Shown: in pieces, positions 1-18,716 of the stretch
How positions within the stretch are numbered: the first letter of the stretch is position 1
How the letters are laid out: every line of letters starts with the position of its first letter
Source of the DNA: Raillietiella orientalis
Lineage: Eukaryota
Assembly (NCBI GenBank): GCA_036172245.1
Contig: JAYWIR010000021.1
Coordinates: forward strand, 3,346,645 to 3,366,644
DNA: 20,000 nt
Reading direction: 5' to 3'
The notes under the pieces: generated by a model
What the model was told of the DNA's origin: nothing
Seen by the model: only the letters and a program-made list of their open reading frames with translations
Databases searched by the model: none
Program-made: the position numbers and the translations under genes

Positions 1-140
1 CTTTCTGTTTTTCGAATGGTTGTGGTTGGTTTTCCCGTAAATATTTTTCTGTTCTTTCCTTTTTTTCTGTATGCGATGATCTGAAATGCATTGTGTTCAT
101 TTGTCCTTGTATTCGATGTACTTGATCTGTATAGTAGGAG

Positions 141-422
141 CTAGTCTGCCTCTTTCGCATGCTTGCTGGTCTCTTTGTGGTGAGGATTTCCTTTGGCGGT
201 TTCGGCGGGAGCTCTTGAGAAACGTTGGATTCGTTTTATCTGAGGTATCGTGGAGGGTATCGCTGTTTGGAAGCATCCCTGGAGATGCGGGGTTGCTGTT
301 GAGCTTCCTTCTTCACCGAGGATTGCGTGCTTTCCTTTTCGAAGTGACCTTTCCTGCGTTTGTTCTGCGGTTGTCCAGTTGTTTGAGGTGAAGCACCGCC
401 GCGTGCACTTTGCGTACGGCAT
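141..422 (-). pseudogene. rep: CRESS-virus replication initiator (Rep) HUH endonuclease domain, degraded
   Basis: MPYAKCTRRCFTSNNWT resembles RCR motif I (WCFTLNN); KHAILGEE..TPHLQGCF contains motif II (PHLQG); RAPAETAKG resembles RAHxExAKG; motif III (YCSKE) is decayed to HAKE; premature TAG at 141-143; a QGQ-like stretch follows in another frame. Confidence 0.85.
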
Positions 423-620
423 GTTGGAACTCTTTGGTGCGGGTGTTTTCGGTTTGATACGGTTTTGAAAGTGCCGAGGTCAGGGTCACCCTCTGCTGTT
501 TCCAAGTGGTTTTTGCGTAGTCGGTGTCAAATTGGAGGAATGTGAGGGTCAGGGGGTTCGTATTCTCTTTGTTCCCTTCATTTTGGAATGCATTAGGATA
601 CAAGAGGTTGCGGTGTGAGG

Positions 621-950
621 ATGCCTGTTGCAACACGTGCACCTCATCGTGCTGATCTTAGGAATGTTTGTTTACGTAAACAGCGTCGTAGACGTCGTGC
701 ATTGCATTCTCCTGGTAATCATCGTAAGCGTAATTCTATGAGGAGGCGCGTTAATGATCGTGGCAATTTTGGACGTGCTTCCTCCTGGATTGGGAATGTG
801 TTGCGTTCTGGTGCGCGTATTCGGTTTAGGGATTTCGGTTTCACGGAGGGTGCTTATACTGTTCGTCAAGAGCTGAGGCCTGTTGGCAGTGAAGGTTATT
901 ATGCCGATTTCCATAATAACTTTGCAACCACTTACGGAAACTTTTTCTGA
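621..950 (+). pseudogene. cap: Putative CRESS-virus capsid N-terminal part; broken remnants may extend to ~1140
   Basis: ATG at 621; Arg-rich N-terminus (RKQRRRRR...RKRNSMRRR) with many CGT codons; divergent from rep as in Circoviridae-like genomes. No recognisable capsid fold motif. Confidence 0.6.
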
Positions 951-1141
951 TCAAAAAGAGTCGAATGTGTTGAATTCTGAAGTAGGTGGAGACTATATAT
1001 GTAGAATAATTATGTTGTTGTGACAAATCCCGGATAGGAGGAAGATTTTGCGAATATGAAAAATCATGGTGATTCCTAAGGAATGTGGAATCAGCTGACT
1101 TGGCAGCAAAACAGATCTCCTGTGTTTCGTAAATTCTGCCT

Positions 1142-2706
1142 GAGGAAGCGCCGGGTGCCTTGGCGGTCGCATTCGACCTTCACAAGACGTTCGATTGCGT
1201 AAACCAAAGACTCCTCTTGGAGCTCTTGGAACGCCTCGGTCTCCCGGCGCAACTCCTGCATTACTTGCGCGCTTGCTGGCGCCACGCGCTAACGTGCATT
1301 TCTTTTAGTGGCTGCCACGTGTACGGTATTCCCGTACCCAGGAGCATCAGGCAAGGCGACAGTTTAAGTCCGTTGCTCTTTAGCATCTTGTTTGAGTTGG
1401 TGCTGAGGGCGTATAGGGTGACGCTGGAGTACCGGCCTAGCTCATGCCCGGGAACGCCTGCCGTGGCTGCCTACGCTGATGACTTGCTTCTTCTGCTCCC
1501 CATGTCCACCCCGACGTCCAGTGTCGAAGATTTCTTCGAACTGATCCGTCGGGTGCGGTCGTGAGCGTCAACAGAGGAAAGAGCGTGGTCGTTCCTGTGG
1601 GAGCGTCGTGGGAGGGGCAGCCCGACTGGATCCGCCTGGGGATCCACACGGCAGGGTATTTAAAGTACCTTGGAGTTCCGCTGGGCGACTCGGCACAGCC
1701 GAGGCGTCGTCGGGCTGCCTTCATAAGGCAGAGTTGGCCGCCAGCCCGTTCATTAAGGGCAGGTTTACCTTGCCGGAACGGGCGGCTATCAGAAATACCT
1801 TTGTGGCCCCCCTCCTCCGCCCCCCGTTTTTTGTTTTGAACCCCCCTTACGCGGCCAAAGAGCGGGCAAAACGCCTGCTAAGGAACGCTCTCTGGGGTCC
1901 GGGGCGATCCAGGATCCTCCTGAAAGGCCTGACGGCTCCATGTCGCGATGCCGGTCTTGGTATCCTGACGATGGAGCGGATCGGACTGCAAGTGCAGTTT
2001 CGGATGCTGGCACTGTGTGCCGAGCTATGGACTTCTCCCCTGTGTGCGCCCGCGCGCATCCTCCTACGGAGGTGTGCCGGAAGCGAAGGACTTCTTTCCT
2101 TGCTGCCAGGCATGCGTCACAGGAGACAGGGATTTGGCTATCCTTTGAGGCAGCTCACCACCTTGTTGGAAGCAAATAGATGGATTTCCTGCCGCCCAAT
2201 GAACTACAATGCATGGCGGCAGGAATCCATTGATTCCTTGGCTGCATTCTTAGGAATGAGCCACGAAAATCTTAGCCCCCTGCGTCACTTTCAACCTTGG
2301 TCACTCCAAAATGTGATGCAGGACGAGGTGAGGTTTTCCGCTTTGGCCATCACGCCCCTTGCCGAAGCATTGTCTGTCCTCGAGGTTCGAGAAGACAGTA
2401 GCCATCCGGGAAGGTGGGAGTTCTCCTGCACCATTGCAGGAAGAACGAAAGCACTTGTCCAATGGGCCACGAGCGAGCTTGCGGATGCCGCCACCCCTCG
2501 TGCTACGCCAAAAGGGTTACTTCGGTGGGGAGAAACTCTTGGTGTTGGAGGAACTTATAATCCCTCCCTGGTGTTTGGACGGCTCGGTGTTTCCCCTTGC
2601 ATGGAAGCAAGACGTCTTGCTCTTCTTGCACTGGGGCTTGCGCTACAACGAACGGCGCCACCGAGCTTGCGGTGGGGTGGCTTCACCCTACTGTGCACGA
2701 TGCGGC
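1142..2706 (+). mobile_element. Tx1/L1-type non-LTR retrotransposon fragment A: ORF2 RT domain to zinc finger, truncated at both ends, frameshifted
   Basis: AFDLHKTFD, IRQGDSLSPLLF, AYADD, VNRGKS, KYLGVPL, DAGLGI, then LHWGLRYNERRH..CARCG across ORFs 1160-1564, 1561-1839, 1608-2756 and 2359-2814. Confidence 0.92.
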
Positions 2707-2806
2707 CCACCTCCGCCGTGGTCGCACGCGTTTTTGGTGAGCTCCAGCGAGCGTAATCAAAAGCAGTTTTTTGTGAGTGCGGAAGTGCGGTCGTTGGAGG
2801 GCAGAA

Positions 2807-4440
2807 ATGCCTGAAGACGCCGCAACACCTGCGACGGGAGACGTGAGGCCCACGTCTCCCCAACCTATGGAGGTGGGGTCATGCCCCACCAGAAAATCAG
2901 CCCCCGCCACCCCGGCGAGGGCGTGGAACAAGGTGGCAGCGGCGGCTCCGCCGGACGTGGCCGCCGAAGTGCAGGCCTACATAAAGGAGGGCTACAACCC
3001 AGCCCTCCTTTACAAGGTAGGAAATCTTTATTCTCCGCTTACCACGCGGAAATTTGGAAACGCCATCCGTAGGATGGGAATCTCTGACGAGGAGATTCTT
3101 TGCTTCTCGATTCGGAGCGGCGGGCAGTTCGCGGAGCTGATCTGCAAAGATGCAGCGCTCACACACAAACTGCTCTGCACGCCCGTTCCGTTCGAAGGGC
3201 GGAATCTCCTCCCACACACGGTGGATCACTCTATGGTGATCCACCTCACTGGTACAACGGTGCGGATGACCGAGGAAGCCATCCGCACTGAAATCAACAA
3301 GTTCGCGGAGATATACGCGATGTGGTCGAAGCCCAACGCCTTTACTTATCGAGGCGCATTCAGTGGGCGAGTTGCCGCACGCGTAACTCTCCGCGAAAAC
3401 AAAGAACTTTTCCACAAGCTGGAGGTCAACGACGAGCTCGTCGACCTCTGGTACGTGGGGAAGGAAAAATACTGTGGGCTGGGCAACACATTCGGGCATC
3501 TTAAAAAGAGATGCCCGGATGCCACATGCCCAACCTGCGGCGCGAAGGGCCACACTAGTGCTGTGTGCCCGAAAAACGCCGCGACAACGCCTTCAGCCCC
3601 TTCGACAAATGAGGGGAAGAAGGCAGAAAACAAAAAAACGAGCGACCAACAGCCGACCTCAGAAGAAGTCGTGCAGAAGGAGCAGGAGTCTCAAGAGAAG
3701 ACTTCTGAACCAACTGCCGACGAGGAAAACTGGAAAGTCGTTTCAAACAAAAAAGCAAAAGAAACACACAAAAAACAAAAACTCCAAAAAAAAATAATAA
3801 TAATACAAATAAGAACGCGAGCGTTCCCAAAAAACCCGCGGTCGGCAAACCAAAAATTTCGCCGCGCGAGTCCATAAAGGAATGCCGCGTTAACATCGAG
3901 CGCGTTCCGTCGATCGAGCGTCGATCGGCGAACGCGACTCCCGCAACCGTCGCGAACGCCGCGGAACCGCCGCAGGAATCCTGCGACAAACACGCGAGTA
4001 GCAGCGACGAGAAAAACTTCGCGAAGGCGGCGGAGGAACTCGCGGCCACCTTAATGCAGCCGCCTAAGGCTGCAAAGAAGGCCGTCAGACGTCCGGCGGA
4101 AGTTAAGGGCCCGGAAACTTCCGGGTCCGAGGCAGAAGCCGGAAACCCTCCCACCGTCGCCCTTCCGAAGAGGAAGGCGGGCCGGAAGTCGCGCAACCCT
4201 CTGCGCATCGCTCCCCCTCAGGCTGAGGAGGAGGAGATGCGCTCGGATAGCGAGGAGGCGATGTCCGCGAGGTCGCGGGATCCCTCTATCGACAGCATCC
4301 GGTCGGTCCTTCCTATCGACCTCAGTCCGGCTGCAGACGTTCCGGTCGTTGCCGAAACGCCACCACCGCAGATGGACAACGACCAGCCGCCTCCCGAACA
4401 GGAGGCGGCAATACACACGCCACCACCATCATTAGTATGA
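2807..4440 (+). pseudogene. ORF1 gag-like nucleic-acid-binding protein with two CCHC zinc knuckles (copy B), one frameshift
   Basis: ATG 2807; YCGLGNTFGHLKKRC (first knuckle has lost a Cys) and CPTCGAKGHTSAVC; frame change in the A-rich tract ~3745-3795 into the frame of ORF 4054-4440; colinear with the copy G ORF1. Confidence 0.88.
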
Positions 4441-5326
4441 TGCGTGGAATCGCCTCTTGCCGGCAGCTGCGTATAGCCTGTTGGAATGTCAACGGGCTGC
4501 GTAGCGAAAGCAAGAGGCGTAGCGTGGCCGACACCCTGCGACCTTTCGACCTGGCACTTCTCCAAGAGGTGCATGCCCTCAGAGCAGAGGACGTCCAGGA
4601 AATCGAGAGGCTCACAGGGGGGAGGCTACTTTGGCGTGATGGAGGAGACCACTCCCGCGGAGTGGCCTTCCTGCTGAAGCCGGCCGTCGCCAATGCGGTG
4701 CGCAGAGCACAGTTCGACGAGGAAGGTCGAGTAGGACAACTTGTCCTCAAGTGGTCCGAATCGATCGACCTCGTAGTTACGAACGTGTGCGCGCCCTGCA
4801 CCAGCCACAGGCGCGCAGAACGCACTGCGTTCTTCGAAGCCCTGCGGCGAGACTGGCTGGCCGAAGCAGGCGTGCGGCGGGCGCATCTGATAGCGGGAGA
4901 CTTCAACGTCCGCCTGCTGTCGGAAGCGCCCGACATAAGAGCACAATTGGTCAACGAGTTGTGTGCGGCTATGCACACACGCAACTTGTTGGCCGATGAA
5001 GCCGGGGTGAGAAGCAGAATCGACCACGTGTTCCTCGATAACCACTTGTGTACGCGGGTGGGGACTCGAGGAGCAATTGCGTCGGAGCTGTCCGATCACC
5101 CTCGGCTAGTAAACAACATCCATCCGCGCGACAGAGGTCCACCCTCCGAAGCGTGGCGCCTGCCGGGGGACTGGTTGCGACTCGCAGGAGCACGCGAACA
5201 TCTGCGCGCATTCCTGCGTAGTTGCGAATTGCAGACTCTCGCTGACTGGGACAAAATAAAACGCTCAGTCCGAGAGTTCTGTGACCAGTTTCCCCTCCAT
5301 CAACTTCCTCCAGGTTTCGGCGATGC
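4437..5326 (+). pseudogene. ORF2 N-terminal APE-type endonuclease and linker (copy B), truncated before RT
   Basis: WNVNGL, LLQEVH, GVAFLL, NVCAP, IAGDFN, SRIDHVF and SDH motifs, plus L1/Tx1-like linker WDKIK..REFC. The last codons of ORF 4437-5354 run into the 3' end of copy C. Confidence 0.93.
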
Positions 5327-6946
5327 CACCCGGATACGCCGGGACGTTTATTAAAAACATTTCAACAGTCAATACAGAACGTGGTACAAGGCCCCACTGA
5401 CGGCCACGCAATACCGGAACTGCCGGGACACTGGGACGCAGCCCGGTGTGGCTCTCCTCGGCAGTGGAGGGGGATGGGGGAGAAAATAAAAATAAAATAA
5501 AAGAGAAAAACAAACCACAAAAAAAAAAAAGTTTGGAGGGCCGGGAAGGGATCACAGAAAACTGCTGGGAGCGCCCATCCTTTGCAGGATGCCTTCTAGT
5601 TCCATTTTCAGTTTTCCTAGATTGGGCCATCGGGTAGCTCTCTGCAGGAAGCGAGAAGCATACTCGATGACGTCCCTCACGATGCAGTCTTCATCTTCGG
5701 CATCACTCCAGGCCGCCACGATACCACGAATGCAGCAAAGTGCTGCCAGGGCTGCGGCTGGACTGAGGGCGTCCCGCACGAAGACAAGACTGAAGACACA
5801 TCCAACATTGCCACCATCCGGTATCCGGAGGGCCGTTTTCAGACGATCCCAAAGAATCTGGACGGCAGGGCATTCAACTAAGAGGTGGGGGAGCGACTCC
5901 CGCTCCCCACACCTGGCACACGCAGGATTTACTCTTCCCCGCGTCCAGTGGAAGCGGCGCGCGTTGCAGGGTAGACCCCAATGCAGCCACAGAAGCGCCG
6001 ATTCTTGCCACTTCAGGGGAAGAATCCTGGATCCAAGTAGAACCGGGGGTCACTTCAGGTCATCCAATCGGATGCCGAGCAGCTCGCCCCATCTTCTTAA
6101 TCCACGCGGCTGGAGACTAGGGGTCGTTGCATCTGTCAACTCTCCCATGGTCCAGCCGCTCATCATCTTCTCTCTGCCTGCGATACGGCAGCAGACTTGC
6201 CACCTTGGCTTCCGGCTTTCGTGAAGCACCCTTTGGAGGAAGGGCATCGCCGTAACAAGGGGTGCGCCTTCCGCCCACGTGTAACTCTGTGGAAATTCAA
6301 GAATTTCACGGAGAGTTCGGCGGGCGTAAAAGCCGACTCGCAGGCAGTTCATCCGGTCTTCGCACCTCTGGTTCTGCTTGGCCCAGGTGCCAACAGTCTC
6401 TTCCAGCCAAGCGGAGGAGTTGGCAGGGCCACAAACCATCCAGTCGTTCTCCTTTGCCAGGGTTGCCATGCGGCCGAGCGGTAGACCGCATCTTCGAATC
6501 TTCCGGCCAGGGCACAGAAGAAACGATGCAAGTCCTTCGCAGCGGGACACACGCCTGGCCAGGAGGCGGGCCGGAATGCATCGAGCGGTGCTCCACATCT
6601 TCGCTGTGATGGCGAGGGTCCGCCATCGCAGCTGCTTCTCCACGCGCTCCAGCGTCCGGATGCTGAGACCGCCGTCCCGACGCGGAGCGCACAAGTCCTT
6701 CAGAGGCAATCGGGGCCTCCCCTTGCCCCAAAGGGCGATACGGAAGATGTACTTTGTCCTCTTCTTCGATTCCACGGTGGGGGGGCAAACAAAAAGCAAG
6801 GGGCGGAGGATGAGGGCCGAGAAGGCGTTCCAAACCGCGGCCCGTTTCGGCAAGTGAAACTTCCCTTCCAGGAACGGGCCGATCGCCGTCTTGACTTTTT
6901 GGAGGCAGCTGGACCACGCTTCCGCAGGGGAGTAGTCCCCCAACGG
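5327..6946 (-). mobile_element. Tx1/L1-type fragment C: post-RT ORF2 C-terminus, zinc finger, 3' UTR and 3' end
   Basis: PLGDYSP..DGGLSI..LHWGLPCNARRFHW..CARCGERESLPHLLVEC; internal TGA at 6050-6052; ORF2 stop at 5552-5554; T-rich 3' UTR; AATAAA at 5347-5352; terminal hairpin at 5329-5343. Confidence 0.92.
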
Positions 6947-7270
6947 GCCATCGGGATGCTATTCGCAGAAAGCGAGCTGCAAACTCCATGCCATCCCTTC
7001 CGTTGACATCCTCTGCTTCGTCGGATCCACTCCAAGCTGCCACAATACCGCGAACGCGGCAGAGAGCTGCTATTACAGCGGCTGGCTGCAGGGCGTGCCG
7101 CACGAAGAGGAGCCGAAAAACGTCTCTGGGAAGGCTACCATTCCGGATCCCTAAGGTGGAACCGAAGCGTTCCCACAGGGGCCGGAGGGCAGCACAGTCA
7201 ACTAAAAGGTGAGGGAGGGTTTCCCGCTCCCCACACCGGGCACAGTTTGCGTTCACACTCCCCCGTGTCC
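6945..7270 (-). mobile_element. Tx1/L1-type fragment D, distal part (zinc finger and C-terminus)
   Basis: TRGSVNANCARCGERETLPHLLVDC..RIASRWP continues the ..HHWTRGS reading that ends at 10038; fused to fragment C over a 2-nt overlap at 6945-6946. Confidence 0.88.
7257..7270 (+). repeat. Left target-site duplication of copy G (ACTCCCCCGTGTCC)
   Basis: 13/14 match to ACTTCCCCGTGTCC at 10038-10051; removing the insert restores the host ORF2 reading. Confidence 0.88.
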
Positions 7271-7281
7271 TTCTAGGGAGC

Positions 7282-7288
7282 GGACGTG
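7282..7288 (+). promoter_or_regulatory. DPE-like GGACGTG motif in the LINE 5' UTR (variant GCACGCG at 2724-2730 in copy B)
   Basis: Matches RGWCGTG, known from internal promoters of arthropod LINEs; lies closer to the apparent 5' end than the canonical +28. Confidence 0.4.
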
Positions 7289-7364
7289 GTTTGGCATCGC
7301 TCCACGGACTGGTTAGTGGGAAGCTTTTCGTTGGTTGTCTGGTGTGTGGGAGCACCGGTGTCCC

Positions 7365-9081
7365 ATGGAAGAAATGCCTGAGGACACCGCGATGGAAGTT
7401 GGAGTAGGAGAAGCGACATGCTGTCCTCCATCAATGAAAGTGGGGGCATCCGCCCCCCCGGAATCCCTGGCACTTGCCCCATCGGAATCGGGGGCAACCG
7501 CCCCTTCGCGACCCTCTTCGCCATTGGCGAGGAGTTGGAGTGACGTCGTTGCTGCACCATCCCCGGATGCAGTAGCGGAGCAGACTGCCTACAAGGACAG
7601 CGGCTACAAGCCGTCTCTGATCTATAAGGTAGGCAGTGTGTTTGATGAAAAAATTGCACGCTCCTTCGAAATGGAGCTGCAAAGGTTGAACGTGAGGGAG
7701 GAAGACCTTGAAGGCCTATCCGTCCTTAGTGGAGGCCAGCGAGTTGAGCTGACATGAAAAGAGGCAAGTCTGGCGCAGCGACTGCTGAACACCCCTATTA
7801 CGGTGGACGGCCGCAGGATCTTCCCTGTGACGGAGGACCGCTCCGTCGTGATCCACCTCACGGGCGTATCACTCCGAATGGACAAAACCAGCGTCCATGA
7901 GGAGTTGTCGAAGCATAGTAGTGTGCACGCGTATTGGGCCAAACCCAATGTCTTCCGAACGTACGGAAGGCTATTCAGTGGGATGGCCGCAGCCCGCGTC
8001 ACCCTACCAGAGAATGGTGGGCTTCCCCACAAACTGAATATCGGCGAAGAAAAAGTCGCGGACGTACGTGGGTAAGCCCAAGTATTGTGGCCATTGCGAT
8101 GCTACAGGGCATCTAAAAAAACGGTGCCCTAACATCCAATGCCACTTATGTGGAAATAAGGGCCACATCCGTAAGGTGTGCCCAAGAAGAGAAATCCCGT
8201 CCCCATCCGCTGCCAAAAAGACAAAAGGGAAACGCACGGGAGAGACGCATACACAGAAACAGGCTGTAAACACCCAGATGTCAGTCCCTAAGCCCTCACA
8301 GCAAACGTCGGTTGAGAACACTCCCGACGACGCTGGTGACGGCGAAGGCTGGCAGACGGTACAGCCACGAAGAAAACCCGGGAGTCCCGAACGAAACGCG
8401 GTGAAAACAAAAACGCAGCGCGAAAAACCGTGCCGCGAAAAGCTCCGCGCGTGTTCAGTAAAATTAGGACGTGTGGAGGCACCCGATGCCGCCGCCGGGG
8501 GAGCAATCCCCCCCCTCGCGTCCGCCGAAGCCGCGACGGTCGATGGCGAACCCTCTGGGGAAACAGAGGGGGAACCGCGCGCCGCGCTCGACGCGATCGA
8601 GGAGGCCGCCTTCCAGCAGGCGGTGGAAGAAATCGCGGCTGAACTGCAAGGCCGTGAGAAGAACTCCCGGAAAGGCTTACGAAGGCCGGCCGCGAGGAAG
8701 GCTCCGGATGCAGGTGAGGCCGATCCGGATGCTGGAAGTGCGTCCTCCTCAACGGAGGCGCCACCAAAGAAGACGGGACGCAAGTCCCAGAATCCCAGGA
8801 GGCGCGTACGGATCAAGAAGGAGGAGGATGAACTGGCACTCGAGGGGGAAGCCGGCAGCGTGGGAGGCGAGGGTGGGAATCTCTCATTTCAAGACACCGT
8901 GCAGCTGGCGACCCCCATGGAGGAGGAAGTACAGGTGGGTGAAACCCCCCTTCCTCTGCACGGCCCTGACGAAGACTCGGCCCCCATGGAGGAGGGAGAA
9001 GCGATGCGCGACGCACCCCCTCCTCCTAGCGTCCCGCCAGACAAGGTGGCGGGAGCCCCATTGCCACTTTCCCAGGATTAA
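7365..9081 (+). pseudogene. ORF1 gag-like protein with two CCHC zinc knuckles (copy G)
   Basis: CGHCDATGHLKKRC and CHLCGNKGHIRKVC; premature TGA at 7755-7757 (Cys in copy B); frameshift near 8064. Confidence 0.9.
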
Positions 9082-9819
9082 CACCTGGGCTCGCCTGTCG
9101 CCGTAGGATCCGCGTAGCCTGCTGGAACGTCAACCGGCTGCGCGACGACGGCAACAGGCGGGATACGGCCGACACCCTGCGCGACTTCGACCTGGCGCTC
9201 CTGCAGGAGATTCACGTGATCACCGCGGAGAACGCTCAGGAGATCGAGAGGATCGCAGGGGGTCGTCTGTTTTGGCAGTGAGGCGCTCGCAACACCTGTG
9301 GCGTCGCCAGAAACACTTGGGCGGAGACGACCCCACTGGCCACGGCGCTGCCCTTCCTACGAAGGGAGCTTCAAAACAGCCGGAAGCCGAGATGGCAAGT
9401 CTCCTGCTGGATAGCGGGCAAGGAGAAGGATCTAAGCGGGTGGACAATAAAGGAACTGGCAGACGCCGCAACCCCAAGCGTTCACCCGCATGGAATACGG
9501 AGATGGGTCGAGCTGTTTGGCATCCCGGCGGATAATTACCCTAGAGTGGCCCCCGTTATTTAGAGACGCATCCACCCTCCCCCTCAAGTGGCAGGAAACG
9601 GCGCTGTTGTTGTTGCACTGGGGTCTTCCCTGCAACGCGCGCCGCCACCACTGGACGTTGGGGAACGTGGGACAGAACTGTGCAGTGTGCGGGGAGAAGG
9701 AATCCCTCCCCCATCTGTTAGTGGACTGCGCTGCCCTCCGGCCCTTGTGGGAACGTTATGCTACGACCCTCCCTATGCCGGTCGGCAGTACCGAGGGAAA
9801 GGATAGTCTCTTCCTCTAG
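9081..9819 (+). pseudogene. Internally deleted ORF2 of copy G (endonuclease N-terminus joined to C-terminal zinc-finger region)
   Basis: ACWNVNRL..LLQEIH..GVA is joined at GCC (9306-9308) to RNTWAETT..; later LHWGLPCNARRHHW..CAVCGEKESLPHLLVDC. Confidence 0.88.
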
Positions 9820-10037
9820 CGGGTTGTGATCCCTTCCCGGCCCCCCAAATAGTTTCTTTTTGTTATTTCATTTATTTTTCTTTTTGTTTCACCCCCTATC
9901 ACCTCCGCTGCCGAGGAGGACAAGCTGGCCTCAGAACCGGCTTCCTGGCAGGTCCCATGAAATATTGGCCGTAGCGGGGCCTAGTACCTCAAATGCAAAG
10001 CGTTTTTTAATAAACGCCCCGGCGTGACCGGGTGAAA

Positions 10038-10051
10038 ACTTCCCCGTGTCC
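10038..10051 (+). repeat. Right target-site duplication of copy G (ACTTCCCCGTGTCC)
   Basis: 13/14 match to 7257-7270. Confidence 0.88.
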
Positions 10052-11240
10052 AATGGTGGCGGCAAGCATTGCAGGGGAGTCCCCAGTGCAACAGCATCAG
10101 CGCCGACTCCTGCCATTTTAGGGAAAGGATGCTTGTTCCAGTTATCACTGGAGGCCACTTCAGGTCATCAGTCGTGATGCCGAGCAGCTCGCCCCATTTT
10201 CTAAGTCCTTGCGGAAGGACGCTATGGGTTGTGGCGTCCGCCAGCTGTCCCATTGTCCAAACGCTGAACAATTTTTCTCTGCCTGGGATACGGCAAGAGA
10301 CTTGCCACCTTGGCGTCCGGCTGCTGACGAGGGCCCTACGTAGGAAGGGCAGCACCGTCGCCAGGCAGGTCGTCTCTGCCCACGTGCTTCTGGCTGGACA
10401 CTCCAGGATCTCGCGTAGAGTGCAGCGGGAGTATCTGCCCCGCCGCAGGCTATTCCACCTCTCGTGGCTCCTCTGATTCACTACCGCCCACGTGCCAACT
10501 GTTTCTTCCAGCCATGCGCTGGAGTTGACGGGGCTGCGGATCATCCACGCATTCTCCCTCGCCAGGGTGGCTCCTCGGACGAGTAGAAGGCCGCATCATC
10601 TTGTCTTCCTTTCACGACATAGAAGAGATGCGAGTCCTCCCGTTCCGGATGCACGTCTGGCAAGGAGGCGGGCAGGAACACACCACGGGGTGCTTCACAA
10701 CTTCGCTGCGATGGCCAAGGTTCGCCATCGCAGCCGAATTTCCATGCGCTCCAGCGTCAGGAGGCCAAGACCACCATCACGACGCGGAGCGCACAAGTCC
10801 ATCAAAGGAACTCGGGGCCTCCCCTTGCCCCAAAGGGCGATGCGCAGGAGATCCTTTGTACTTTTTTTCATATTCATGGGGACGGGGCAAACAAAAGTAT
10901 TAATGAAGGATAGGGGCCGCAAAAGCGTTCCATACTGCGGCCCGTTCCGGCAAGTGGAACTTGCCCTCCAGGAACGGGCGAATCGCCAAATCCACTTTCT
11001 GAAGACGGCCTGACCATGCTTCTCACGGGCAGAAGTCTCCCAGCGGAACGCCAAGGTACTTCAGATGTGTGCCCGTCGGGATCCCCAGGCGGATCCAGTC
11101 AGGTCGTCCTACCCACGTCGCTCCAACTGCCACCATCGACGATTTTGCCCTGTTGACCCGTGGCCCTGTCCCACGGCTTAGTAGGTCGAAGAAATGTTCG
11201 ACCGCCGTTGCCGGAGCGGACATTGGGAGCGGGAACAGCC
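10038..11240 (-). mobile_element. Tx1/L1-type fragment D, proximal part (end of RT to zinc finger)
   Basis: LPMSAP..VNRAKS..DWIRLGI..LKYLGVPLGD..DGGLGL..LHWGLPCNACRHHWTRGS with several frameshifts; closer to C than to A. Confidence 0.9.
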
Positions 11241-11850
11241 GGAGCGAGTGCCCGGCAACAGCGAGAGCAGTCCTCCGCTGCCGGCGCATCTCCTCAGGAG
11301 AATGCGTGCAGGCACACACTGGGGGGTTGTCCACAGCTCGGCACACAGTGCAGCAGTCGGAACTGCTCCTGCAGTCCGATTCGCTCCATTGTCAGGATGT
11401 CCAAGCCAGCATCTCGACGTGGAGTTCCGAAGACTTTCAGGCTGATCCTGGATCTCGCCGGTCCCCAGAGAACGTTCCTAAGCAGGCGTTTAGCCCGCTC
11501 TTTTGCCGCGAAGGGAGGTTCTAACAAAATAAACAGGGGGTGGTGGAAGGAGGCCACAAAAGTATTATAAACAGCCACCCGTTCCATCAAAGTAAACTCG
11601 CCGTTAATGAACAAGATGGTGGTGGACAACTCTGCCTTCTGAAGAAAGTCCGACCACGCTACGGCTGCGCCGATAGCGCCCAACGGAACGCAAAGTACCC
11701 GACCGTAGGGATCCCCAGGCGGATCCAGACTGGATCCGCCTGGGGATCCGGACTTCCCGTCCCACGACGCACCCACTGGAACAACCACGCTGTTCTCTCT
11801 GTTGATGAAAAATTGCAGCGTCGTCCCACAACGATCACAGAACGCCCTCA
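11241..11850 (-). mobile_element. Tx1/L1-type fragment E (end of RT and thumb region), same subfamily as A
   Basis: VVPVGASW..AAKERAKRLLRNVLWGPARSRI..DAGLDILTMERIGLQ closely matches fragment A; homology is clear to ~11806 and weak to ~11850. Confidence 0.88.
11709..11749. repeat. Perfect 41-bp palindrome (20-bp arms, 1-nt spacer)
   Basis: GGATCCCCAGGCGGATCCAG-A-CTGGATCCGCCTGGGGATCC; absent from homologous A and D. Confidence 0.95.
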
Positions 11851-11904
11851 GTAATCTACCCTTTTTCCAAGCAAGTTCTGTCTGAAACGTCCCTGCCTAC
11901 CGTT

Positions 11905-12337
11905 TAACAGCACTGCAATGATCGCAGCAATTACCGCATATGCAGAAACGTTAGCACGATCCAAGACATACAATAGGCACTTTGTATACAACTTGGAGAA
12001 TGTGCCTTAATTCTCAAAGTCTCCTTCTTCTGATGCTTTCATCGCAGCTACGTCATCTTGATGTATTGCATTGCTCTTTCCAAATAATGGACCAAGTTGG
12101 AAAAAGAGAGCAAAAAGCAGAGTTGCCTAATATGAAAATAGCAGTAATTGGCAAGTGGTGCGTAAATTGCTAAAGAACTCCAGGCCAAAATAGAAGAGGA
12201 GAAAATACTATGATTTTCACCAATGTGGATGTCAAGATCGGCCGAAACATATGCGTTGCAGCAGCAGTAAATGCACCCTGCAAAGGTGCTCCCTTAATTA
12301 CTTTACGATCAGCATATTCACTTACTACTATTGCATC
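11905..12337 (-). pseudogene. Bacterial AcrB/AcrD/AcrF-family RND efflux permease fragment (Rickettsiales-like), decayed lateral transfer
   Basis: DAIVVSEYADRKVIKG..MFRPILTSTLVKIIVFSPLLFWPGVL*QFTHHLPIT.., then after a frameshift GPLFGK..MKASEEGD..LYTKCLLYVLDR; matches the RND TM4-TM6 region; stops at 12170-12172 and 12007-12009; AT-rich relative to flanks. Confidence 0.85.
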
Positions 12338-12438
12338 TAGAGTGACGCTCCATTTCATATATTAATTATGTTTTTGCAAGTTGGCCTGCGATATTTTTGC
12401 AGTCGTCGTCTATAAATTCTAAATTTCAGAAATTGTAC

Positions 12439-12522
12439 CGTATTAATGGCACGCCGGAAGCTAAAGGCTTCAGCACCTCTTAATTCTCCAACTAGTATTC
12501 GATCTGGCCCAAGTCTTAAGCA
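12439..12522 (-). pseudogene. virB11: Type IV secretion ATPase VirB11 fragment (Walker B region)
   Basis: 28 codons [28 protein letters not shown], close to the VirB11 motif [29 protein letters not shown] as I recall it from Rickettsiales; too short for the ORF track. Confidence 0.87.
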
Positions 12523-12529
12523 TAGGATG

Positions 12530-12698
12530 TTTTTTGTTCTCAGTCCCCACCTCCCACACCCATTTGGAACCTACAGCTTTCCTGGCATGCGAACCGTTGG
12601 TGTTTTTGAGTTTTGCTTTTTGGTAGGCTTCAGCGGGAGGAAGCAACTGTTCCCTGCTTGTTCATGGAAATAAACGTCCCCTCGTGACAGGGAAAAAA
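12530..12698 (+). mobile_element. Solo 3' UTR and 3' end of a related Tx1/L1-type element
   Basis: AATAAACGTCCCCTCGTGACAGGG-A6 mirrors the termini of C and G; upstream T-tract, CACCTCC and GAACC..TTCCTGGCA blocks are shared with the G 3' UTR. Confidence 0.72.
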
Positions 12699-13058: not shown

Positions 13059-14160
13059 GTTCGCTGCTGGCGATTGTGCCTCTGCAGCATCAGGAGTGCA
13101 CAGAGTGCTACCATCAGGGCACCTGCCTCTGGTGCCTCTCTCACCTCAACTGCGTTGTTCGCAGGGGCACCTTCGTGGATGGGTGCGGCTTCGGCGTCTG
13201 CTGCAAAGTTCAGGCACGACACCCGCCCGGCTGTTCCAGATTTTCGCACCCTGAATCCGGATCCCAGTGTTCATCACGTGGAATCGCACCATCTCTGCCA
13301 ACAACACGTTCTCTGTCAACACACTGGAGGTCGTGTATGCTAAAGGAACCTTCCAGGAAAAGCTAAACAAAGGCGACTCGTCCGCGTTCCAGTAGAGATA
13401 TGCGGAAAGGGAGGACACGCGGTGAATAAGGAGGATCTGGAGGATGGAAGCACGGAGACATACGCCAATTCCCCCCCCCCCCATTGCAGGAACGACGGCG
13501 TGCCCATTGCTGCATAGCGGTGGGAGAGCATGGCAACTGGTGCGTTGCCAAGGTGGAGTGCGCCCTGAGATCACCAATCGCGTGCCTTCTGTGCAAGGGG
13601 GAACTTTGCAGGAATGCCACAGTAGGTGGCATGTGTCTGCATTCAACGGGGGCGCATATCCTTCCGAATCTGTCGCCTCCACAACTCCTTTCCTCCGGCA
13701 ACTTCGAAGGCAGAACCGGGAACGCACGGCCCTTCGTGCTATCTCTGGCACTGCACGATAAAGGCATCTGCTGAACGGATTCGCTCTCCGTTTCTTCCGG
13801 AGGGAAGGGTCCAGCCATCCGCTACCTCTGAAATGCGCTTCGAACAAGAGCAACCACTTTGAGCAACCGTCGAGGTCCCTCTCTCCGATTGCCTTTCGGC
13901 AAATGTGCGTCCGCGTTTTACCGGATGTCCGGAAACTCGCTTGCATGCCTTGCTTGAGGAAAAAGGGGAAGAATGGGAGACGTCTGTCCAGAAATTCCTG
14001 CTGGACGGCGGCTTCCTGCCCGACCATCCTTCCATTGTACGTCCCTTCCGACACGGACGTTTATCAACACATTATTACGGCGACCTTGGGGTCCTTGTCC
14101 ATGGACCTCATTTGCATGTGGATAATCCGAATACTGCAGATGCACCTATTGCGCCTGGCC
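13059..14160 (+). pseudogene. Decayed paralog of the neighbouring CUB-domain gene
   Basis: Exon remnants 13059-13208 (SLLAIV..GTCL..GFGVCCK), 13268-13397 (130 bp, same length as the paralog exon, TAG at 13393-13395) and ~14036-14160 (LYVPSD..WIIRILQ); splice sites mutated (GCGG and CAT acceptors, TT and AT donors). Confidence 0.8.
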
Positions 14161-14527
14161 TGGACTCGTTCGTTCTTTGCTCTTCCGAAAGGAATGCGAA
14201 AAGCGAAGTATTATCCCAGTATGTAGAATCCCAGGAGCTCGATATGAAAAGTATTGTAAGGCGAGTCCATCTGGCCTTTGCGTTCGATTCTTCCCACCGC
14301 ACCATCCACGAGGTTTCCTCAGCTCTTCCGAAATCACGCAAACAGCAGCGACATCGCAACGCCGAATATTTCATTTTCAACCTTAAAGTGCCTATCTGCA
14401 CCGAATACATGAGCATCCTCAAGCAGCATCACGCCCATTGCATGTGGTTCGCAGCAGTTATCCTTGCAAACCTCCGGCGGCAAGAGTCACAGTCCTTTCT
14501 CAACCCACGAGAGGTACAGAGCAAACT

Positions 14528-14533
14528 TTTATT
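14528..14533 (-). promoter_or_regulatory. Polyadenylation signal AATAAA of the CUB gene
   Basis: Starts 24 nt after the TAG at 14558-14560. Confidence 0.65.
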
Positions 14534-14557
14534 GCTATACCAGATATCAGCAGATCA

Positions 14558-17500
14558 CTAATTCACTTGATTGTACATGAGGTTGAACCCAACGTTCCTC
14601 GCCATGGTCATCACAGCGTTGTTTGTTTTGATGTGCAGCATGAATGGAAACACGGCAGCTGAAAGCACAGATGACTCCGAAAACCTATACTGATCGTTAT
14701 CTTACTGCACACTTGAGATCCAGCATTCATCCCAGTTACAGCGTTTAGCCAATTCCCGCAGAAACGCTCTTGCGTGCACATTGGGTTGGCCGCAAGAACA
14801 GCAGCCTGAGCACCACCGCAAGGGATGATAAACGCATCGTTGACACAATTTGCTGCTACACTGTTGCTCAAGGAAGTCGCAGCAGTCGCGTCAATCGAGA
14901 AACCAACGTCGGCCATGTTGGGTATCGCATTCAAGCACAACGCCCTGGCTCCAGGGGTAGCCCTCACACACATCGCGTATTCCAGGTTGGTATTTAGAAC
15001 CGACATGACGTTGTTCATCCAGCCAAAGGATACGATCATACCTGTGGCCTCAAGGAAGTACTGAAGGCATCCGATGGGAGCTGCAAATGAGAAAACACTT
15101 TGAATTCACCCCACTCTATCCGCATCGCAGTGAGGATGCGATAGGGTGTTCTGTGAATTAACTGTCCGCTTCCATTTCAACATATAATTTGGCACAACCC
15201 CTTCATTCCGCTGGGAGTTTTTGCTATTGCACAGACCAATGCAGCGTCAAGGAAGCTGCGAACCCTCCACTGGTCATGGAGTCGACCGACCTCAGCAACA
15301 ACCAAAAGGCGGGACATGCCATCGTCAAACAGGAAACCCCTGCCGTCAGCTCCGCCGCTCGCATTGCGAAATCGAATGGGAGTTCCCAACAAATTTACTG
15401 CTCTTTCCTTGCGACATTCTTTTTTCTAAACTACGGCATGCACCATGTCCCTTTTAATTGCACGTTCGGTGTCTCGCGGGAGGGAGAATGGGGTGGTACG
15501 CGTAAAGGGATATTCGCGGCAGCCATTGCCACAACGGTGCAACCTCCTACAGCGCGTGGGACAGGAAGGGCAGAGCTTTCTTTGGGTGGGTAGCCAATTC
15601 GACGAAGCATGGAATGGGACGGTTCCATCCACTTACCCAGATACTCGGATCCGGATTCGATCTGCAACACACGGATGGACCAGGATCTTATTTCCATAGG
15701 CATCGCAGAGGCGACCGTGATGACTAGCATAACTCCCGTCGTTGCAGCGTCCATCCTCACGTACACTAAAATCCAGAAGAGGGGGGGCTTAACTATGCCA
15801 GCTGGCATTGGGGTTCTGTGTCTTCTGATTGTACTTCAGTCAAGCTCTTTTGGCCAATATCCGCAGCGACTTCACGGATATGTGTCCAAGAGCCCGGCAC
15901 CGCTGATTCATACCAGCGGACACACGCCGACATGCCACGTAGGCAAAGACAGCAGTGGCACCCTCTTTTCCGAATTCGCTTCGGGACTCTAACAGATGCA
16001 CAAAAACAGGAAGACCTTTCGAGGGTGCAGAAATCTTTCGGGACTGTGTCACCAACCTACGTCCCTTTCACCAATACACTTTGGGAGGACAACCCCCGTG
16101 GTACGAGATCAGCACCGCGGATGGCAAGAGCGATGTTTAGCTAACATTTCCAGGGACGTTTGGTTCCCATTCCTGCAGGACTGTTGCTTGGATTTGCTCT
16201 TCTATCTCTAAAACCGCAGAAAGCCAACAGCAGCATTGCAAGAGAGAAGCGTTGGTCCGGCAGACTCGAGCGCGAGAGATGGGAGTCGGCTCTCCGCATC
16301 CCCCTCTGTGGTGCCGCACACGGCAAGCGAACCGACGATCTTCAGCGGTCAAGCCGCGCCGAAGATTGGCAGCGCTGTTTCGGAAGACGTACTCAATTCA
16401 GCGGCTTCCTATGACTACGGTCTCACACGAATGGCGCCAATGCTGGTGCTTGCCACTTACCAGCGACCAAAATAGTTACTTACGGTGATTGTTCGGGTTC
16501 GGTCCGCAAATCGAGGAAGGGATGCTTTGTAAAGATCCGCTACCCATGGGCGTTATCACCAACGAATCCGGGTCGCATTGCCCGGTGGTACGCACTGCTG
16601 ATCGAAGAGTCAGGGGCTGTAGTTCGATCCTGAAATTCACAGGTGCTTGTAAATCAAATTCTCCTCTGTGTCCCTGCTTTGCCACCGAAAATTGACCCCG
16701 TACATCCCAGCAGGGAACAAACAGCGCTTGTGCGAGAGGGAAGTGCGTGATGAAGAAGCGCGGTCAGCAGTCCCTCGGCTTTTCTCACTGTGCATCAAAC
16801 AAACGAGCGGTGCCTTCATGCCGGGAGCTCTTGAGGCAGCTCCTTCTCATTGCATGCGACCTTTCTCCCCCAAAATAGGCTTCCTGCGGTATCTTCTCCC
16901 GCAGCTTGTGCTTCCCTTTGGGCTTCCTGACCTTTACACGTATTCTGATTCCCGATGGCTACCAAGCACGTGTACAAGCTCATACCCTTCGGTTCCGCGT
17001 TTTTCCGGCTTCACAATTGGTGGACGTTCGTTTTCCATTCTCGCAGGAGGAGAAATGCAGAAAGAATTCTATTTATGCTTTGCTTTATAGAAGGGTGTTG
17101 CCGCACCCAACAGTATCGTGGAATCTCACTCCCCCCTACAGCGTGGCGCCTGTCGTAAACTTCCACAGCAAAACTGCCTGATGCTGCATGCAAGTGGATG
17201 CGCTTCCCGTGGAAACGACTTGCTCGTCCGTCTTAGCGTTCGTGTTTTCCAATGTGGCGGCAAGAACTGCAGATCGACTTCGGTTGACGGTGTTTGCGAT
17301 CGTCTTCCCGGTAGGGTCCTCATCCCAACGGCTGCTTGGCTTCTCTACCTCAAAAGCCACGTCTGGAGCGGAGACGTTCATCGGCGTAGCCAAATTTGAC
17401 AGACACTTGGGAACCATCGTGGGTGAAACGAATGTCGATGGACAAGATGCTGCTCACAGCTACCAAAAGGGAGGCTTCGCAGGCACTGAAGCCTTTTACG

Positions 17501-18716
17501 ATTCGATGGTGATCAGCAACCATTCCAGGATCAGTGGGCTCTCTCGCGCTGTGAGATGACGAGCTGCTTGACGAGCGAGACTCGCGTCATCCTCCATTGT
17601 GTAGCTAATTGAGATCCTATTCCGTTGCCTACGTTCTCTTTCAGCACACTACTCAATATTCGAATAGAACCGAATTTCCGAAGGTCGTCCGTTGCCCGGG
17701 GATCCACTTGTGGGTTCGAACTGCTCCCTCGTCCTCACCTGAACTGTTGGATACGCGAGTTGAGTTTCTGGACCGTCGCTTGGCATGTCCCTCCGGTCGT
17801 TAGGACGTCCGTCGTGTTCTCGAAGTACGTATTGTTTATTCTTGAACTTTGCCCGCATCCAAGTATCACTTTGGAAGTTTGACCATTTTCGGCATGGGAT
17901 CATTGCGGGTCTTACCTATGCAGCAAACACCGATCCCCAGGGCGCATTGACCATTCCTCAAACCACCGGCATTTGAGCACTCTCCAGGAGGAAGGCACGT
18001 CCCGTTGCGCGAGTTGACGAAGCAAGGCGTGTTTTGTATCCGCACTATTTGCATCAGTGAACCTGAAGAGGAGGACGAAATGATGAGTACTCGGTGGTGA
18101 TCCCGAAACGCCATTTACGTTTGCCACGAAAATCGTGCCCGTCGAAGAAAGCGTCATTGGGTGTCATCGCTTGACACTGTCGGCGAAGTTCCAGTTGCAC
18201 GCGTTTTGAGGAATGCTTTCAACAGGAATGGTTTCGATCGTCCAACGAGGTCATACGCTGGCGTGGGAAGGATTGGGAAGAAGCACGTGGAGGGAACATT
18301 CGGGAATAAGGAGATTGAGGAGGTGCACGACTTCGATTCCTCTCGTGCTTCGCCCTAGGCCACCTGACTGAGGACGAATGGCTGCACTCAGCAGGCGCGT
18401 TCTTCTCGAACTGGCAAGCACAGAGGAATCCGTGCAAGAGGGCAGCTGCCCGACGGCATGTGCGCCTCTGCAGCTCGGCCAAGTCGACTCGTTTGGCATG
18501 GCGGTGGTGAATGTGTGTGTGGATGTGTGCGAGTGGGTAGGAAGGTGGATGTGTGGATGCATGCGTGTGCTTGTGTGTTCGGAATAGCCTCAAGCGAAAA
18601 CGCGCAGAGGTCCGCGGAAGCACTCGTTACTTACGGGATTGGTGTCTTGAGGTTGTGTTTGCTGCTTCTCCCTGCATGCACGTCATGACGAAAATTCCCA
18701 AAATCCACGCACACAT
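14558..18716 (-). CDS. Secreted arthropod-type CUB-domain protein, 7 coding exons, 369 aa (386 aa if ATG 18767 is used)
   Basis: Exons 18635-18716, 17916-18062, 17739-17868, 16484-16629, 15637-15765, 14706-15080 and 14558-14658; all GT-AG and phase-compatible, 1110 nt in total; signal-peptide-like MCAWILGIFVMTCMQGEA; NGTC..EC..GG..G.CA.G.GVCC module; NNTYF, ICGPN, APIGCLQYF, RFCG and GFNLMY motifs. Confidence 0.9.
18503..18579. repeat. Degenerate (GT)n low-complexity tract in intron 1 of the CUB gene
   Basis: Interrupted GT/TG dinucleotide runs. Confidence 0.6.

Follow-up and report, generated by a model that had tools for sequence, protein, structure and literature searches.

We analyzed a 20-kb stretch of DNA (the window, meaning the whole of that stretch), of which positions 1-12698 had been claimed as an archive of invader sequences. 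This part holds a nest of at least eight long interspersed nuclear element (LINE) fragments that run nearly gap-free over 10.7 kb (1142-11833, by DNA and protein self-comparison), a relic of the replication protein (Rep) of a circular Rep-encoding single-stranded (CRESS) DNA virus to the left of the nest (144-458, minus strand), and, at its right end, a 737-bp patchwork of four Midichloriaceae (Rickettsiales) pieces (11825-12561) drawn from rpoC, an RND permease gene, an intergenic region and virB11. LINE sequence makes up ~84% of 1-12698, bacterial sequence 5.8% and the Rep relic 2.5%, leaving ~7.6% unassigned. G+C content is 0.586 over 1142-11824 and 0.417 over 11825-12561, and ranges from 0.35 to 0.52 over the first 1141 bases. 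The window is eukaryotic in character, with long decayed retrotransposon frames and bacterial gene density absent, and all of the foreign pieces are disabled. Scans of the window with Rfam and for tRNAs and tandem repeats gave nothing relevant (zero tRNAs, zero Rfam matches).

The original prediction described fragments of three parasite classes, in both orientations, making up nearly all of 1-12698. LINEs were borne out by Pfam and self-comparison, bacterial DNA by four matches to a single genome, and CRESS-virus sequence for 144-458(-) only; both orientations are indeed present, with the LINE pieces split evenly into four on the plus strand and four on the minus strand by self-comparison. 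The observation was thus largely real and is now sharpened to four bacterial pieces, a donor family, one close relative of the donor and base-level junctions. Taken singly, the components are all of known kinds (LINE nest, relic of symbiont DNA, and endogenous viral element, or EVE, of the Rep type); what is new in detail is that the donor belongs to the Midichloriaceae and that four pieces make up the mosaic.

Bacterial mosaic at 11825-12561

Weak Pfam matches to ACR_tran, T2SSE and RNA_pol_Rpb1_1 gave the first hints of bacterial DNA. A DNA search of 47 Midichloriaceae genomes returned matches in 43 of them, with E-values for the mosaic, per genome, from 7.6e-121 to 4e-15. One 1.6-Mb genome, G040, stood far ahead of the others in the family, matching four separate pieces of the window at 82-94% DNA identity, with all four source sites on one 1.59-Mb contig; the rest of the 20-kb window had no further match to it. 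The pieces are as follows.

11825-11910, minus strand: rpoC piece of ~29-32 codons, with one in-frame stop
11911-12337, minus strand: RND (AcrB-type) efflux permease piece, residues ~399-545 of 1040, with two stops and two deletions
12336-12407, unstranded: non-coding piece, from a G040 stretch between an antiporter-like gene and groES/groEL
12434-12561, minus strand: virB11 (type IV secretion ATPase) piece, covering residues ~216-258 of 326-331 and carrying a 6-nt deletion

The rpoC piece matches rpoC at 1243 kb of G040 with 94% identity over 11825-11904 (83/94 positions, or 88%, in a longer alignment), and the RND piece matches the permease gene at 99 kb over 11912-12337 (356/434, 82%). The non-coding piece matches at 1547 kb (62/72, 86%, over 12336-12407), where its G040 source holds zero open reading frames (ORFs) of at least 50 aa and zero Rfam matches. 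The virB11 piece matches virB11 at 926 kb with 86% identity over 12434-12518 (76/90, or 84%, over 12434-12523), and in protein this match can be followed to 12555 with the G040 gene and, with a homologue from Bandiella, to 12561, a part in which DNA homology is weaker. NCBIfam models run on the reference ORFs identified VirB11 and RpoC above their cut-offs, and the RND permease under its cut-off at an E-value of 3.7e-156. Upstream of groES/groEL, G040 has a 1.1-kb AT-rich tract without long ORFs (L090, G040:C1:1545500-1548700, positions 959-2082), and the 72-bp piece comes from there.

Scanning species-representative genomes for the 63-aa RND frame gave 518 pattern matches, 90 of which encode a relative and 80 of which were kept. 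The best relatives, at 64-73% identity, are almost all titled Midichloriaceae and include Bandiella, Aquarickettsia, Cyrtobacter and Jidaibacter. In a tree of 81 rows and 79 columns built by a quick method, the RND piece nests within this symbiont group, inside a clade of 20 rows (15 titled Midichloriaceae and 5 untitled) with a Shimodaira-Hasegawa-like approximate likelihood ratio test (SH-aLRT) value of 99; its terminal branch is long (1.5). The donor was a member of the Midichloriaceae and a close relative of G040.

The junctions found by alignment to G040 DNA lie close to those originally proposed at ~11850-11905, 12337-12439 and ~12525. The rpoC and RND pieces meet at 11910/11911, both in one reading frame; the RND and non-coding pieces overlap by two bases (12336-12337); and 26 nt of filler separate the non-coding piece from virB11. 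At the left end, up to ~8 nt (11825-11833) are compatible with rpoC and with the adjoining LINE copy, F1, alike. The mosaic is flanked by LINE sequence at 11824 and by non-bacterial DNA beyond ~12561. Inactivating mutations are present in each gene piece: the single stop in rpoC, the 6-nt deletion in virB11, and in the RND piece two in-frame stops together with a 2-nt deletion that shifts the frame and a further deletion of 6 nt. All four pieces share one orientation, which is also that of F1, and three of them are sense pieces of genes.

The G040 source sites (99, 926, 1243 and 1547 kb) are separated by 300-1100 kb. The three gene homologues are likewise apart in G001, at 248, 520 and 946 kb, and in G003 rpoC lies ~60 kb from the RND gene and virB11 ~1 Mb off. 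With sources this distant from each other in G040 and G001, and with virB11 remote in G003, the mosaic is unlikely to be what is left of a single bacterial segment that inserted whole and decayed in place.

LINE nest at 1142-11833

Self-comparison divides the nest into the following eight pieces. Two lineages are distinguished, alpha and beta.

1142-2776, plus strand: copy A, alpha, 5'-truncated, from the middle of the reverse transcriptase to the C-terminal zinc-binding region; 3' limit at ~2740-2776
2777-5556, plus strand: copy B, ORF1 (two CCHC knuckles) and endonuclease, then directly a 3' untranslated region (3'UTR)-like end, with the reverse transcriptase deleted
5560-6946, minus strand: copy C1, beta, 1.4 kb of 3' sequence that runs from the region after the reverse transcriptase through zf-RVT to the 3' end
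6930-7340, minus strand: copy C2, beta-like, C-terminal piece only
7344-9308, plus strand: copy D, ORF1 and the first part of the endonuclease
9306-9819, plus strand: piece E, beta, C-terminal zf-RVT region, stopping at the ORF2 stop
9825-11230, minus strand: copy F2, beta, 1.4 kb of 3' sequence including the 3'UTR, tail-to-tail with E
11208-11833, minus strand: copy F1, alpha, with A as its closest relative; internal part of the element, joined at its 5' end to the bacterial rpoC piece

Both hallmarks of the L1/Tx1 group, an APE endonuclease and a reverse transcriptase, are present, as Pfam matches to Exo_endo_phos at 4251-5351(+) (E 4.8e-14) and RVT_1 at 1133-1561(+) (E 6.5e-11). The first part of Exo_endo_phos recurs at 9030-9278(+) (E 0.007), zf-RVT matches at 5555-6049(-) and 9451-9816(+) fell just under the Pfam cut-off, and a CCHC knuckle was matched weakly in 8038-9078(+), although two CX2CX4HX4C knuckles are visible in the translation of each ORF1. 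Every copy is truncated or internally deleted.

Lineage alpha comprises A and F1, which share 76% of nucleotides and 55-73% of amino acids, and lineage beta comprises C1, C2, E and F2, at 58-70% amino acid identity, whereas alpha and beta have merely 35-45% of amino acids in common. DNA divergence among copies of one lineage is 20-35%. The family is confirmed, from its domains and divergence, as an endonuclease-type LINE in two diverged lineages. Naming was attempted by word search with the endonuclease ORF, which gave zero matches, and through the protein Atlas, which gave generic endonuclease clusters only.

ORF1 of B and ORF1 of D are 41% identical in amino acids, compared to 74% nucleotide identity for the 3' pieces C1 and F2, and these copies are therefore separate insertions; the same figures rule out a segmental duplication of a 4.5-kb unit. 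The same layout is seen twice, over 2777-7340 and 7344-11833: a plus-strand 5' part with ORF1 and endonuclease is followed by a short plus-strand 3' piece, a 1.4-kb minus-strand 3' piece lying tail-to-tail with it, and then another minus-strand piece. This repeated layout possibly reflects a recurrent geometry of integration. The outermost copies, A(+) and F1(-), are mutual closest relatives in inverted arrangement (1142-2116 versus 11249-11833, 76% of nucleotides), and the viral and bacterial relics adjoin the outer sides of this pair. At the 3' ends of B (5460-5559) and F2 (9820-9900), an A-rich tract is followed by ...GGGCCGGGAAGGGATCACA, with no plain poly(A).

Rep relic and Arg-rich ORF at the left edge

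The region left of the nest had been read as viral over the whole of 1-1142, a claim that held for only 315 bp; 826 bp of 1-1141 could be assigned to nothing. Two features were considered here.

144-458, minus strand: CRESS-DNA-virus Rep relic, N-terminal HUH nuclease domain, found by phmmer (315 bp)
597-950, plus strand: Arg-rich ORF, divergent from the Rep relic, capsid-like by composition only

The relic lies within an open frame of 112 codons (141-479, minus strand) that carries CFTSNN and PHLQG, which we take to be Rep motifs I and II; the Tyr at the position of motif III is not conserved. Pfam alone placed Viral_Rep (PF02407), the family of endogenous CRESS-DNA-virus Rep elements in invertebrate genomes, under its curated cut-off (18 versus 26 bits). 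An exhaustive phmmer search of 1.84 billion representative proteins returned 33 at E<=1e-3. Viral_Rep is present in 29 of them, and in 15 of the 29 it is accompanied by an RNA_helicase domain. All 29 map back solely to 144-458(-), through their first ~100 residues, and the best pairwise match has 41% identity over 74 residues, which leaves the relic very distant from every Rep among the 1.84 billion proteins. Comparison at the protein level thereby confirms 144-458(-) as a relic of a Rep nuclease domain.

No helicase part was detectable in 1-143, and the 29 Reps match nothing further in the window; the gene may run off the window start. Word search found no longer proteins related to the Rep, and neither the Rep piece nor the Arg-rich ORF had a relative in scans of IMG/VR. 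Four proteins at the head of the phmmer list (P0001, P0002, P0003 and P0005) were set aside as repetitive, with scores inflated by repetition. Two of them, P0001 and P0002, consist of ~55-aa tandem units with 42 and 12 matched stretches, respectively (per unit 30-36% identity over ~44 aa, E ~1e-3), a similarity that may mean that a Rep-like element gave rise to a satellite, or that repetition inflated the score.

A capsid identity for 597-950(+) is unsupported, with no match in Pfam or IMG/VR, only chance-level antibody matches in the PDB, and an AlphaFold2 (AF2) model that is all-helical with no confident fold (predicted local distance difference test, pLDDT, 52). The nonanucleotide NANTATTAC, which we take to be that of the CRESS origin, was not found in 1-1142. 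The only hairpin there, at 892-923 within the Arg-rich ORF, is a 12-nt inverted repeat whose 8-nt loop is unlike this nonanucleotide.

Origin of the locus

We consider it rather likely that the locus is an insertion-tolerant LINE graveyard, probably in an invertebrate nuclear genome, and that the foreign pieces entered through break repair and LINE integration. A double-strand break in the chromosome would have been repaired with four degraded fragments of symbiont DNA, ligated end to end in one event by end joining of the kind seen in mosaic organelle-DNA inserts, and the Rep piece would be a separate capture of part of a CRESS-virus genome. LINE copies would have inserted beside and into each other by target-primed reverse transcription, after or before the foreign pieces, and the truncated 5' end of F1 would have become joined to the rpoC piece; the ~8 bases shared at this joint are what is expected from microhomology-mediated joining of a LINE 5' end to its target. 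The pieces would persist because there is no selection against them at this site, which would explain the locus without any function. Several points weigh against this account: three foreign classes in 12.7 kb may be more than passive accumulation would give, a small-RNA role is quite possible, the single entry event is one that we infer from the abutting ends of the four pieces, and the shared orientation of the pieces, which has a chance probability of 1 in 8 for the four by themselves and 1 in 16 once the LINE is counted, hints weakly at a directed process.

One alternative is that the LINE reverse transcriptase, while copying F1 RNA, switched onto leaked symbiont RNAs and produced a chimeric retrocopy in the order 5'-virB11-X-RND-rpoC-LINE-3', X being a transcript from upstream of groES. 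Template-switch chimeras of L1 are known. In keeping with this mechanism, F1's truncated 5' end carries all four pieces, in the orientation of F1 and three of them as sense gene pieces, and the joints are either seamless or have an overlap of a few bases, the stretch at 11825-11833 that fits both rpoC and LINE among them. Microhomology of this kind also fits DNA end joining, however, and the replacement of the F1 3' end by F2 leaves no target-site duplication or tail to check. Because the fourth piece is non-coding, from a G040 tract that need not be transcribed, and the 1-in-16 argument from orientation is weak, we regard template switching as improbable. That the assembler wrongly joined reads of a live symbiont or virus to host repeats is exceedingly unlikely. 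A search of sequencing runs listed no RNA run and one separate run of short DNA contigs, X1, which contained 0.10 of the sampled words and covered mainly LINE parts of the window, at 90-99% identity, with no cover at 13341-18009. Among the 8 of its 164 pieces that were listed, none bridges a junction, which leaves such an artefact some room, and just one, a 207-nt contig at 12126-12332, falls within the RND piece. With only 4 differences, this contig is 98% identical to the decayed RND version, versus 82% for G040, and weakly backs the existence of the relic outside this assembly. The bacterial pieces are moreover only 72-427 bp long, come from four distant sites of a donor-like genome, carry stops and frameshifts, and are joined to one another base to base, whereas long genes in an intact state would be expected of a live bacterium; being short, broken and fused in this way, they are most unlikely to stem from a live contaminant.

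A PIWI-interacting RNA (piRNA) cluster is defined by its small-RNA output. The stretch might, by analogy, be such a cluster or part of one, in which long precursors would turn transposable element (TE), viral and symbiont fragments into piRNAs and so provide a heritable record of invaders, a reading that we hold to be possible but on balance doubtful. In its favor is the high load of fragmented TEs on both strands together with an EVE in one small stretch (eight LINE fragments at 84% of 1-12698, plus the Rep relic). Among arthropods, EVE enrichment within piRNA clusters was seen in 28 of 48 genomes, and primary piRNAs came from 81.4% of cluster EVEs versus 35.7% of other EVEs, according to one study (10.1101/396382), which would give this reading a fair prior in an arthropod. 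Against it, the even split of LINE orientations lacks the strand bias of uni-strand clusters, although a dual-strand cluster would be compatible with it. The Rep relic, at 41% identity to the nearest Reps found, is too diverged to target any virus in the set, and among the papers listed by our literature searches none was found to link bacterial inserts with piRNA clusters. As for the symbiont "archive", it amounts to a single mosaic of 737 bp, consistent with one event, and looks like one insertion and not repeated sampling. The anatomy fits a piRNA cluster and a passive repeat graveyard equally well. It is very unlikely that the locus is a transcribed small-RNA source running through the virB11, RND, rpoC and Rep relics, with piRNAs or small interfering RNAs (siRNAs) complementary to transcripts of a Midichloriaceae symbiont living in the host's cytoplasm or mitochondria; in a mechanistic variant of this idea, the LINE reverse transcriptase would have taken up the symbiont pieces in the form of RNA. 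If this were true, intracellular bacteria would join transposons and viruses in the "genomic memory of invaders".

Comparison with known systems

Complex nuclear inserts of mitochondrial and plastid DNA (NUMTs and NUPTs) are mosaics of organelle DNA end-joined at chromosome breaks. Like them, the mosaic consists of non-adjacent donor fragments ligated with zero to a few bases of overlap or with short filler; unlike them, its donor is bacterial and all four of its pieces have one orientation. The mosaic can also be set beside nuclear relics of symbionts, whose standard signature is short disabled fragments co-assembled with host DNA (PMC4046930), a signature that its short, broken pieces fit. 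It resembles the Wolbachia "nuwts" or genomic fossils described in reports on Dictyocaulus viviparus (PMC4046930) and on termites and cockroaches (10.1101/2025.03.16.643567) in being made of short, disabled gene fragments from an intracellular alphaproteobacterium amid host repeats, and the latter report states for 47 termite and cockroach genomes that pseudogenized bacterial transfers are about tenfold commoner than genes. Identity to living relatives is ~82-94% here and 84.5% for the Wolbachia relics of PMC4046930. The locus differs from these relics in its Midichloriaceae donor and in the fusion of four distant pieces into 737 bp.

Arthropod piRNA clusters with EVEs (10.1101/396382; PMC13643977) are likewise dense in TE fragments on both strands and contain an EVE, a likeness known here from sequence alone; unlike the locus described here, they are not reported in these papers to contain bacterial DNA. 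Like endogenous CRESS Reps of invertebrates, the Rep relic has an HUH nuclease domain in which motifs I and II can be recognized, and it corresponds to the N-terminus of the ~300-aa Reps that it matched; it differs from them in having only ~100 codons left, with the motif III Tyr lost and no helicase. In their domains the LINEs resemble the L1/Tx1 group: CCHC knuckles mark ORF1, and ORF2 combines an APE-type endonuclease with a reverse transcriptase and a C-terminal zinc-binding domain. They differ in a 3' end that is A-rich and then ...GGGATCACA in place of plain poly(A).

The locus is a clean, base-level record of the DNA of a Midichloriaceae endosymbiont entering a host chromosome beside the 5' end of a LINE, and Midichloriaceae were not found as a donor in the transfer literature that we searched. 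The mosaic marks a symbiosis, past or ongoing, between the host lineage and a close relative of G040. Should small RNAs arise from it, the locus would be a test case for the sampling of bacterial symbionts by piRNA-type loci; otherwise it would be an ordinary repeat graveyard.

Right flank

The archive had been described as lying directly beside ordinary genes, a claim that comes down to a single lead from the protein Atlas.

14614-15105, minus strand: candidate host exon encoding a CUB domain, a lead only, with an Atlas score of 0.96 and low recognition value

The Atlas score was to animal CUB-domain clusters (CUB_animal), mostly from arthropods. Pfam, word search and folding were all empty for 14614-15105(-), with no Pfam match, no word-search homologue and an AF2 pLDDT of 31. 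This frame and another at 17869-18114(-) are cysteine-rich open frames of exon-like appearance.

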